Source: a virus (taxonomy: Duplodnaviria > Heunggongvirae > Uroviricota > Caudoviricetes). Taken from it: 25,289 bases of DNA. The notes under the pieces were generated by a model, which saw nothing but the letters and a program-made list of their open reading frames with translations, did not search any database and was not told the DNA's origin. Each line of letters starts with the position of its first letter. Within the stretch, counting starts at the first letter, position 1. A program made the translations under genes and the position numbers. Location of the stretch: positions 1 to 25,289 of the IMG/VR virus record IMGVR_UViG_2531839265_000001, one strand, 5' to 3'. Shown here one piece after another: positions 5,610 through 5,919 of the stretch.

Positions 5610-5684
5610 TGGAACGGGTAGCGGGAATCGAACCCGCATCATCAGCTTGGAAGGCTGAGATAATAGCCATTATACGATACCCGC
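5610..5684 (-). tRNA. tRNA-Gly (anticodon UCC)
   Basis: Reverse complement GCGGGTATCGTATAATGGCTATTACCTCAGCCTTCCAAGCTGATGATGCGGGTTCGATTCCCGCTACCCGTTCCA is nearly identical to E. coli glyT, with a UCC anticodon loop and encoded CCA. Confidence 0.9.
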
Positions 5685-5687
5685 ATA

Positions 5688-5763
5688 TGGTGCCGACTAC
5701 CGGAATCGAACTGGTGACCTACTGATTACAAGTCAGTTGCTCTACCTACTGAGCTAAGTCGGC
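5688..5763 (-). tRNA. tRNA-Thr (anticodon UGU)
   Basis: Reverse complement GCCGACTTAGCTCAGTAGGTAGAGCAACTGACTTGTAATCAGTAGGTCACCAGTTCGATTCCGGTAGTCGGCACCA has a cloverleaf with anticodon loop CUUGUAA. Only 3 nt separate it from tRNA-Gly. Confidence 0.85.
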
Positions 5764-5843
5764 TCAGAACCACCACCGGCTACCAGAACCTCGCACACTC
5801 CACTTAAAGGGGGGACGCTCTTTCCTGATGAACTGGTGGCGAC

Positions 5844-5919
5844 TGGTGGCCCTTGCTGGATTTGAACCAGCGACCTGGCGATTATGAGTCGCTCGCTCTC
5901 ACCACTGAGCTAAAGGGCC
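5844..5919 (-). tRNA. tRNA with CAU anticodon, most similar to tRNA-Ile2 (ileX-like, lysidine type); elongator Met not excluded
   Basis: Reverse complement GGCCCTTTAGCTCAGTGGTGAGAGCGAGCGACTCATAATCGCCAGGTCGCTGGTTCAAATCCAGCAAGGGCCACCA closely resembles E. coli ileX. Confidence 0.8.

Follow-up and report, generated by a model that had tools for sequence, protein, structure and literature searches.

A lambdoid prophage tRNA array with three called genes, one of them damaged, and a decayed fourth slot between antiterminator Q and the lysis cassette

The stretch of DNA analysed here, referred to below as the window, is 25.3 kb long (25,289 nt) and belongs to a lambdoid prophage whose rightward operon lies on the minus strand. 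tRNA genes were sought with ARAGORN and with the Rfam family RF00005, and neighbouring genes were assigned by Pfam, NCBIfam, PHROGs and Rfam scans (Table 1). For the whole window, ARAGORN reports three tRNA genes, all on the minus strand, and their anticodons (UCC, UGU, and CAU) are those that the original prediction had read. ARAGORN and Rfam also agree exactly with that prediction on the coordinates. The three genes belong to RF00005, whose gathering score is 29 bits, with E-values from 4e-11 to 1e-14, which excludes chance; Rfam gives each of them a full cloverleaf, and the CCA end is encoded in all three (3/3). Single-sequence MFE folding missed the cloverleaves even of genuine tRNAs and was therefore left out as evidence.

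Table 1. Coordinates of the tRNA array and of the features around it in the window.
Feature	Position	Strand	Basis
hok/sok	13188-13362		Rfam, 112 bits
Doc/Fic toxin	12143-12637		
DUF968, split over two ORFs	10258-11432		
RusA	9886-10245		
Antiterminator Q	9200-9895	-	Pfam PF06323, E=1.4e-88
PR'-like late promoter, TTGCAA-17-TATATT, overlapping the 3' end of Q	9188-9216	-	promoter scan
tR'-like terminator, 18-bp perfect hairpin and T run	9101-9140	-	read from sequence
Cargo between tR' and the tRNA array, about 3.2 kb	5935-9100		Pfam, NCBIfam, PHROGs
Truncated AraC/YdeO-like gene (in cargo)	8489-9004		Pfam/NCBIfam
Degraded IS4-family element with broken transposase gene (in cargo)	about 6890-8230	+	
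ORF69 (in cargo)	6833-7042		
ORF266 (in cargo)	6031-6831		PHROG 1521
Candidate promoter counterpart, weakened, TTGCAG-17-TACTAT, 7/12 matches	5929-5957	-	inferred from sequence and alignment
CAU tRNA, Ile2 (lysidine) type, ileZ-like prophage allele	5844-5919	-	ARAGORN; Rfam 72.5 bits
Decayed fourth tRNA slot, Arg-UCU-derived via 'Lys'-UUU type	5764-5843	-	alignment to relatives
tRNA-Thr(UGU), identical to host thrU	5688-5763	-	ARAGORN; Rfam 73.8 bits
tRNA-Gly(UCC), glyT-derived copy	5610-5684	-	ARAGORN; Rfam 60.8 bits
Terminator-like hairpin between the tRNA array and the holin genes	5234-5253	-	terminator scan
Lysis cassette downstream of the array	3823-4931	-	Pfam
Holin	4467-4931	-	Pfam (cassette holins: Phage_holin_8, Phage_holin_3_7)
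Holin	4203-4439	-	Pfam (cassette holins: Phage_holin_8, Phage_holin_3_7)
M15 peptidase endolysin	3823-4206	-	Pfam
Nu1	1169-1678	-	

The array holds the position of a late-operon tRNA module, in tandem on a single strand, with Q, PR' and tR' preceding it and the lysis cassette following, and judged from this gene order it sits in the classical slot that heads a lambdoid late operon. The genes had originally been placed on the late strand and upstream of the lysis genes; by the Pfam assignments they share their strand with Q, the holins, the M15 endolysin, and Nu1, so that this placement is correct. The PR'-like site was also found by the scan of phage vB_EcoS-689R5 (689R5 below) and is conserved in the alignment with relatives. 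The tR' hairpin lies about 50 nt downstream of this promoter, and an equivalent hairpin is present at the same position in the relatives. In M19 and phage 689R5, the array begins about 100 nt past the tR' hairpin, and in another relative, ECL27977, it comes after a DNA methyltransferase moron. In the window, the array is set apart from Q by the cargo of about 3.2 kb, and homology to the relatives is lost at about 5931 and regained at about 9101-9141. The neighbouring unassigned ORFs gave no functional match in PADLOC, Pfam, or NCBIfam. With its IS4 insertion, its split DUF968, and its truncated AraC-like gene, the prophage is probably defective.

The three genes had been described as tightly spaced. 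This holds for Thr and Gly, which lie 3 nt apart; the 80 nt from the CAU gene to Thr are no spacer and are homologous to a fourth tRNA. This slot aligns column for column with a 77-nt Arg or Lys tRNA of the relatives. The remnant in the window keeps 17 of the 21 cloverleaf pairs, with two of five in the T stem; its T loop is TTCTGGT, C8 and C33 stand where U is expected, and its 3' end reads TCT in place of CCA. ARAGORN called no tRNA within these 80 nt, and RF00005 gave no tRNA match to them even at E<=10. The homologues are recognized by Rfam at 57.8 bits for the Arg form and at 44.4 and 39.6 bits for two 'Lys' forms, and the 'Lys' copy of M19 scores under the gathering score. Homologues of the slot are found in 800 of 5426 complete E. 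coli genomes, with a best identity to the window copy of 89%, and the remnant allele itself has no exact match in genome_contigs or IMG/VR. By these alignments, the 80-nt stretch is a decayed fourth tRNA gene, that is, a pseudogene. The possibility of a cryptic working tRNA in the 'spacer' was also considered and rejected, as an Rfam search of positions 5740-5870 at E<=10 matched only the cut ends of the neighbouring genes.

The dead gene also accounts for a repeated motif. The sequence ACTGGTGGC occurs twice in the window, at 5832-5840 and 5842-5850, and the original prediction had taken it for a duplicated 3'-end fragment (TGGTGGC) left by past recombination at these genes. The repeat exists; its first copy, however, is the 5' acceptor strand of the remnant (UCGCCAC-CAG), which adjoins the CCA end of the CAU gene. 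Because the relatives have GCCACTAG at this place, the exact repeat stems from a point substitution and not from a duplicated 3' end. Although the repeat is thereby lost as a trace of recombination, the idea itself receives some support: where the window is homologous to other prophages, the match breaks off precisely at the ends of tRNA genes, at 5763 and 5920. In addition, one IMG/VR contig (L070) is 87% identical to the window over the tRNA array only.

Among the relatives, the 'Lys'(UUU) form of the fourth gene clearly descends from the Arg(UCU) form: the loop CUUCUAA has become CCUUUAA, the discriminator has changed from G to U, and one T-stem mismatch has appeared. This form keeps 20 of 21 pairs and is abundant. 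It could be either a working tRNA, possibly relevant to PARIS/PrrC, or an early-stage pseudogene. That the widely annotated prophage 'tRNA-Lys' traces to an Arg-UCU gene may merit a look.

Four tRNA genes stand side by side, 1-3 nt apart, at related loci whose identity over the lysis-tRNA region is 86-96%; their order is CAU, the 77-nt Arg(UCU) or 'Lys'(UUU), Thr(UGU), and Gly(UCC). For a wider survey, the phage-specific Thr-Gly junction CCGGTAGTCGGCACCATATGCGGG was used as the query, and ARAGORN was run on 135 such loci. This junction is present in genomes of E. coli, Shigella flexneri, E. albertii, E. ruysiae, and Citrobacter braakii, and in at least 120 IMG/VR contigs. The most frequent arrangement is Thr-Gly only (55/135 loci), followed by CAU-Lys-Thr-Gly (44/135), CAU-Arg-Thr-Gly (19/135), and CAU-odd call-Thr-Gly (4/135); six other types of combination make up 12 loci, and the window is the single locus in which nothing is called between CAU and Thr (1/135). 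The four-gene form is present in 70 of the 135 loci, and read from these gene orders the ancestral array is four genes long. Conservation was expressed as the mean identity to the window over 68 four-slot arrays. It reaches 0.985 for CAU, 0.989 for Thr, and 0.949 for Gly, as against 0.774 for the fourth slot and 0.495 for the 250 nt downstream. By this measure, the three live genes are conserved in a mosaic background, a pattern of apparent purifying selection, and the fourth slot is not.

The Thr gene is identical to K-12 thrU over 76 of 76 positions, and this is the commonest allele in the survey (73/135 loci). The Gly gene matches K-12 glyT at 71 of 75 positions. Two of its four changes form a compensatory pair, U6-A67 in place of C6-G67, that is common to many prophages; the other two, C25U and C72U, produce G10·U25 and G1·U72, a combination private to the window (1/135 loci). 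The G1·U72 allele has no exact match in IMG/VR, and the commonest prophage Gly allele is the host-identical glyT sequence (60/135 loci). Taken as sequences, Thr and Gly are plain copies of host thrU and glyT. The K-12 thrU-tyrU-glyT-thrT (tufB) operon has the same Thr-then-Gly order as the window; there, however, tyrU and a 116-nt spacer stand between thrU and glyT, and thrT is next, whereas in the window the two genes are 3 nt apart within unrelated flanks. A direct derivation of the pair from a fragment of the tufB operon was rejected: the match is confined to the tRNA bodies, spacers and flanks differ, and tyrU is absent.

A gene 100% identical to the CAU gene is present in at least 2730 E. 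coli records, O157:H7 and E2348/69 among them, where PGAP names it tRNA-Ile. The original prediction had tentatively assigned the CAU gene to the Ile2 type, and this assignment is well supported by alignment. The gene matches K-12 ileX/ileY at 70 of 76 positions (92.1%), with identical acceptor stem and anticodon loop, and carries C4-G69, C5-G68, the loop CUCAUAA, C29-G41, and A73. In contrast, the elongator metT has U4-A69 and A5-U68, and the initiator metZ has C1/A72 and a GGG/CCC anticodon stem. In 2005, Ikeuchi et al. reportedly described pairs 4-69 and 5-68 as determinants for TilS.

Four of the points described so far were absent from the original prediction: that a fourth gene existed and is dead, that Thr and Gly come from the host, that Gly carries private damage, and that cargo with an IS element separates Q from the array.

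How much the array still does in this prophage can be questioned. It may no longer be usefully expressed here and may persist because it is young or because it hitch-hikes with the lysis module, a reading that we consider possible, if doubtful. The fourth gene is dead, with its lost pairs, its missing CCA, and its lack of an Rfam match. Of the two C-to-T changes private to Gly, one converts G1-C72 into G1·U72. Since G1-C72 is a GlyRS identity pair (PMC9976931), this wobble may lower the charging of the Gly tRNA. Both the remnant and the Gly allele are found nowhere else in the collections searched (genome_contigs and IMG/VR for the remnant, IMG/VR for Gly). The surroundings show further decay, in the form of the broken IS4 transposase, the cargo past PR'/tR', the split DUF968, and the truncated AraC-like gene. 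Phage 689R5 has a promoter-like sequence, TTGCAA-17-TATTAT, with 9/12 matches in the scan, 10 nt upstream of its CAU gene; the candidate tRNA-proximal counterpart in the window appears weaker at 7/12 matches, and the promoter scan of the window reported no strong σ70 promoter immediately before the CAU gene. However, the CAU and Thr genes both remain 100% identical to the most frequent functional-looking alleles, and the three called genes retain their cloverleaves and CCA ends. The G·U wobbles in Gly still pair, and no damage is apparent in Q, PR', tR', or the lysis genes.

The anticodons were compared with codon usage in host and phage genes. The host set comprised 42 annotated K-12 core genes (14,748 codons), and the phage sets were the ORFs of the window and the genes annotated as early or late in PhiR47_1, a complete phage with a four-gene array. 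In the core sample, AUA, ACA, GGA, and GGG are low-usage codons, as had been supposed. Per 1000 codons, AUA rises from 2.4 in the K-12 core to 14.1 in the early genes of the window and 7.3 in the late genes of PhiR47_1; in the same order, the values are 5.4, 18.1, and 13.4 for ACA, 6.0, 14.9, and 12.8 for GGA, and 9.2, 15.7, and 19.4 for GGG. The codons of the lost Arg gene behave similarly, with 1.2, 6.7, and 4.7 for AGA and 0.7, 2.7, and 4.7 for AGG. AUA, ACA, GGA, and GGG are thus about 1.7-5.9 fold more frequent than in the K-12 core, and Fisher p values for the comparisons of phage with host range from about 3e-3 to 5e-16. Part of this enrichment is explained by GC content, which is lower in the phage DNA (47.9%) than in the K-12 sample (52%).

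Degenerate codons were also ranked by the phage/host ratio of their fraction within each amino acid. In the window, the top five are AUA, AGA, AGG, ACA, and GGA, with GGG seventh, and these top-ranked codons are exactly those read by the four ancestral tRNAs. In PhiR47_1, the early and the late set both place AUA, AGA, AGG, and GGA among their first five codons and ACA among the first seven; GGG comes sixth for the late genes and tenth for the early genes.

The original prediction had proposed that the array serves late-gene translation in particular, and it had named codon usage as a check. Phage genes are indeed enriched for the matching codons, but early genes are enriched equally or more, and enrichment specific to late genes is thereby rejected. 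The match between the anticodons and the codon excess of the phage is real, but it concerns the whole phage and is not late-specific. Among late genes, such codons are fewest in the head gene and tail gene U (34-38 per 1000), mid-range in the major tail gene V (53 per 1000), and most frequent in the tail fibre and accessory genes (96-125 per 1000). As the enrichment is general and, among late genes, lowest in the head gene and tail gene U, late translation may gain little from the array. In addition, AGA and AGG are still 4-5 fold enriched despite the loss of the Arg gene, which suggests that supply and demand are not tightly coupled.

Supplementation of rare codons remains plausible, though not as something specific to late genes. 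The explanation that we favour, with a probability of roughly 0.55, is that the locus is a standard lambdoid late-operon tRNA module, copied from host minor-tRNA genes, which supplies decoders of rare codons and is eroding in this prophage. The module was built from host copies: an ileX-like gene (CAU), an Arg-UCU gene, thrU, and glyT. Once Q lets RNA polymerase pass tR', the array would be transcribed at the head of the late transcript, which host RNase P and 3' processing enzymes would cut into tRNAs, and TilS would turn C34 of the CAU tRNA into lysidine. The added Ile2, Thr-UGU, and Gly-UCC tRNAs would then provide more decoders for AUA, ACA/ACG, and GGA/GGG, respectively. The dead Arg/'Lys' gene, the G1·U72 pair of Gly, and the IS element and cargo between PR' and the array are signs of erosion of the module here; since the prophage looks defective, the array may no longer do anything in it.

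A module of this kind is not new. It has been known since the 1990s that lambdoid phages can carry tRNA genes between Q and their lysis genes, and near-identical arrays are annotated in GenBank. In SfI, Sf6, ST64T, and P21, tRNA genes downstream of Q, together with a bias toward ACA, were read as supplementation (PMC3636060). As a discovery, the locus therefore matters little; what the present analysis corrects is its annotation, to four slots of which one is a pseudogene.

The closest known systems are the phages PhiR47_1 (PV340566.1), vB_EcoS-689R5 (ON470583.1), and vB_EcoM-606R7, which have four-gene arrays in the same order as the window and in the same position between Q and lysis; four-gene arrays are also present in prophages of about 800 of the 5426 complete E. 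coli genomes. Over the region, identity to the window is 92-93%, and the CAU and Thr genes are identical or nearly so. They differ in that their fourth gene is still called, either as Arg-UCU (57.8 bits) or as 'Lys'-UUU (40-44 bits), whereas the window has its private Gly allele and, upstream of the array, the 3.2 kb of cargo with the IS element.

The lambdoid Stx phages of the 933W type use the same slot downstream of Q for ileZ-argN-argO, followed by stx, and these tRNAs read codons that are rare in the host. As in the window, a CAU gene of the Ile2 type comes first, followed in their case by Arg-UCU genes. The CAU gene of the window is 100% identical to the O157:H7 copies, and phages Nil2 and 2851 are 86.9% identical to the window over CAU and the fourth slot. 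However, the Stx phages are without Thr-UGU or Gly-UCC and have stxAB next, whereas the window has Thr and Gly and no toxin operon. A literature search on ileZ/argN/argO returned almost nothing relevant; one study (PMC3636060) cites an 'ileX tRNA gene close to the Stx2 operon'.

A different function for such arrays is suggested by work on anti-phage nucleases. Studies of P2-OLD, PARIS, and retron-Eco7 have led to the argument that many coliphage tRNAs serve defence evasion (PMC12445682, PMC10264068). P2-OLD kills lambda-infected cells by cutting the host tRNA-ThrU (UGU), and phage tRNA-Thr(UGU) genes rescue from P2-OLD through resistance (PMC12445682). One of these rescuing genes belongs to phage 21, which is lambdoid like the prophage of the window and carries its Thr-UGU gene downstream of Q (PMC12445682, PMC3636060). 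Applied to the window, the array would replace tRNAs cut by nucleases, ThrU in the case of P2-OLD and Lys(UUU) in that of PARIS AriB/PrrC, so that translation continues; we regard this as improbable. The window does carry a Thr-UGU gene, with the anticodon of the P2-OLD target, and its fourth-slot remnant descends from a UUU-anticodon type with the unusual C33. However, a Thr tRNA resists P2-OLD only if its CNG motif is altered and its anticodon stem shortened as well, and an additional supply of host tRNA-ThrU protects little, if at all (PMC12445682). The resistant coliphage Thr tRNAs combine these two changes, and the Thr tRNA of the window has neither. Its anticodon arm, ACUGA-CUUGUAA-UCAGU, is that of thrU: the CUG/CAG motif is unchanged and all 5 bp of the stem are present. 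As the tRNA keeps the thrU motif and stem, it should not be an OLD-escape tRNA by the criteria of that study (PMC12445682), which gives a sequence-based reason why it should not protect against P2-OLD. Moreover, the UUU-type slot is dead in the window, and no nuclease directed at Ile2 or Gly-UCC came up in a literature search that was not aimed at such enzymes.

The relatives are more suggestive in this respect. Among the 135 related Thr alleles, eight carry changes at G42/U43 that convert CAGT into CATC or CACC, and they do so in several backgrounds. These changes, which concern relatives and not the window, break pairs 27-43 and 28-42, alter the CAG motif, and shorten the anticodon stem; motif and stem are the two features whose change is reported to confer OLD resistance. 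In a broader form of the idea, to which we likewise give little credence, lambdoid arrays downstream of Q would be mainly arms-race cassettes, with Thr directed against P2-OLD, the C33 'Lys' against nucleases of the PARIS/PrrC type, and slots that are gained, mutated, and discarded. If this were true, the window would hold a 'naive' host-identical Thr next to a discarded Lys slot, and the relatives with CATC or CACC would carry OLD-escape alleles that arose repeatedly from the thrU copy. The recurrent variation in the anticodon stem of the relatives' Thr-UGU genes may merit a look.

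Many lambdoid prophages carry a gene annotated as 'tRNA-Lys' in the fourth slot of the tRNA array, which in fact corresponds to an Arg-UCU tRNA body with the anticodon loop CCUUUAA. U33 is normally invariant in tRNA; the prophage gene has C33 in this loop, its discriminator base is U73, and a single T-stem pair is mismatched (A·C). This type was present in about 47 of the 135 loci that share the phage-specific Thr-Gly junction and were run through ARAGORN, and the fourth slot, in any form, was found in 800 complete E. coli genomes. PGAP is inconsistent on the 'tRNA-Lys': it is called in some of the sampled E. 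coli records and skipped in others.

The prophage Thr-UGU genes of the relatives also vary in the anticodon stem. In E. coli M19 (positions 5297-5372 of its locus) and seven more related loci, genes that otherwise resemble the host gene thrU carry changes at G42/U43 (CAGT to CATC or CACC), by which two anticodon-stem pairs are lost and the CAG motif is altered. These variants are spread over several allele backgrounds, and the M19 copy is without PGAP annotation. Loss of stem pairs and change of the CAG motif are the two features reported to confer P2-OLD resistance on phage tRNA-Thr (PMC12445682).

In the CAU (Ile2) gene of the window (5844-5919), which represents a widespread prophage allele, the anticodon stem is topped by an A27·C43 mismatch, whereas the chromosomal ileX and ileY have G27·U43. 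Pair 27-43 of the prophage allele is marked non-canonical by Rfam; nevertheless, the allele is unchanged across thousands of records.

Features of the prophage and of related loci (L002, L006, L007; positions of the respective locus).
Feature	Position	Strand	Remarks
'tRNA-Lys' with Arg-UCU body	L002 4158-4234; L006 5365-5441; L007 15272-15348		
ORF, 148 aa	2235-2681	+	between lysis cassette and Nu1
ORF, 198 aa	2704-3300	+	between lysis cassette and Nu1
ORF266	6031-6831	-	PHROG 1521
ORF69	6833-7042	-	cargo with ORF266
IS4-family element	about 6890-8230	+	transposase gene in at least two ORFs (6977-7591, 7842-8198)
AraC/YdeO/GadX-like regulator, truncated	8489-9004	-	171 aa; YdeO model positions 1-169 of 253; PHROG 1450
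DUF968 (YdfU-like) gene	10258-10590 and 10584-11432	-	split in two overlapping ORFs
Doc/Fic-family toxin gene	12143-12637	-	nin-like region
hok/sok type I toxin-antitoxin locus	13188-13362	-	sok, Rfam 112.5 bits

The AraC/YdeO/GadX-like gene occupies the moron slot right after the terminator tR', and the IS4-family element begins about 260 nt past its 3' end. This element, in which the transposase gene is broken, is inserted in the stretch that separates tR' from the tRNA array and runs antisense to late transcription; a few E. coli genomes hold IS4-family copies with up to 94.8% identity to it. ORF266 and ORF69 are the part of the cargo that immediately precedes the tRNAs; ORF266 is not separated from the array by any detected terminator. 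ORF266 had no match in Pfam, NCBIfam or PADLOC; phages 434 and 2B8 have a 'putative membrane protein' to which it is 57% identical.

Between the array and the holin gene, the STnc100 sRNA family gave a weak full-length match on the minus strand (5225-5418; 21 bits, where the gathering score is 47; E = 0.04), which ends at a terminator-like hairpin (5253-5234). This match may represent a small RNA, or chance.

Further from the array, the 148-aa and 198-aa ORFs, on the strand opposite to the lysis cassette and Nu1, are a moron pair; neither had a match in Pfam, NCBIfam, PHROGs or PADLOC. The split of the DUF968 gene probably results from a frameshift and is a further sign of prophage decay. Finally, the nin-like region houses both the hok/sok locus and the Doc/Fic toxin gene.
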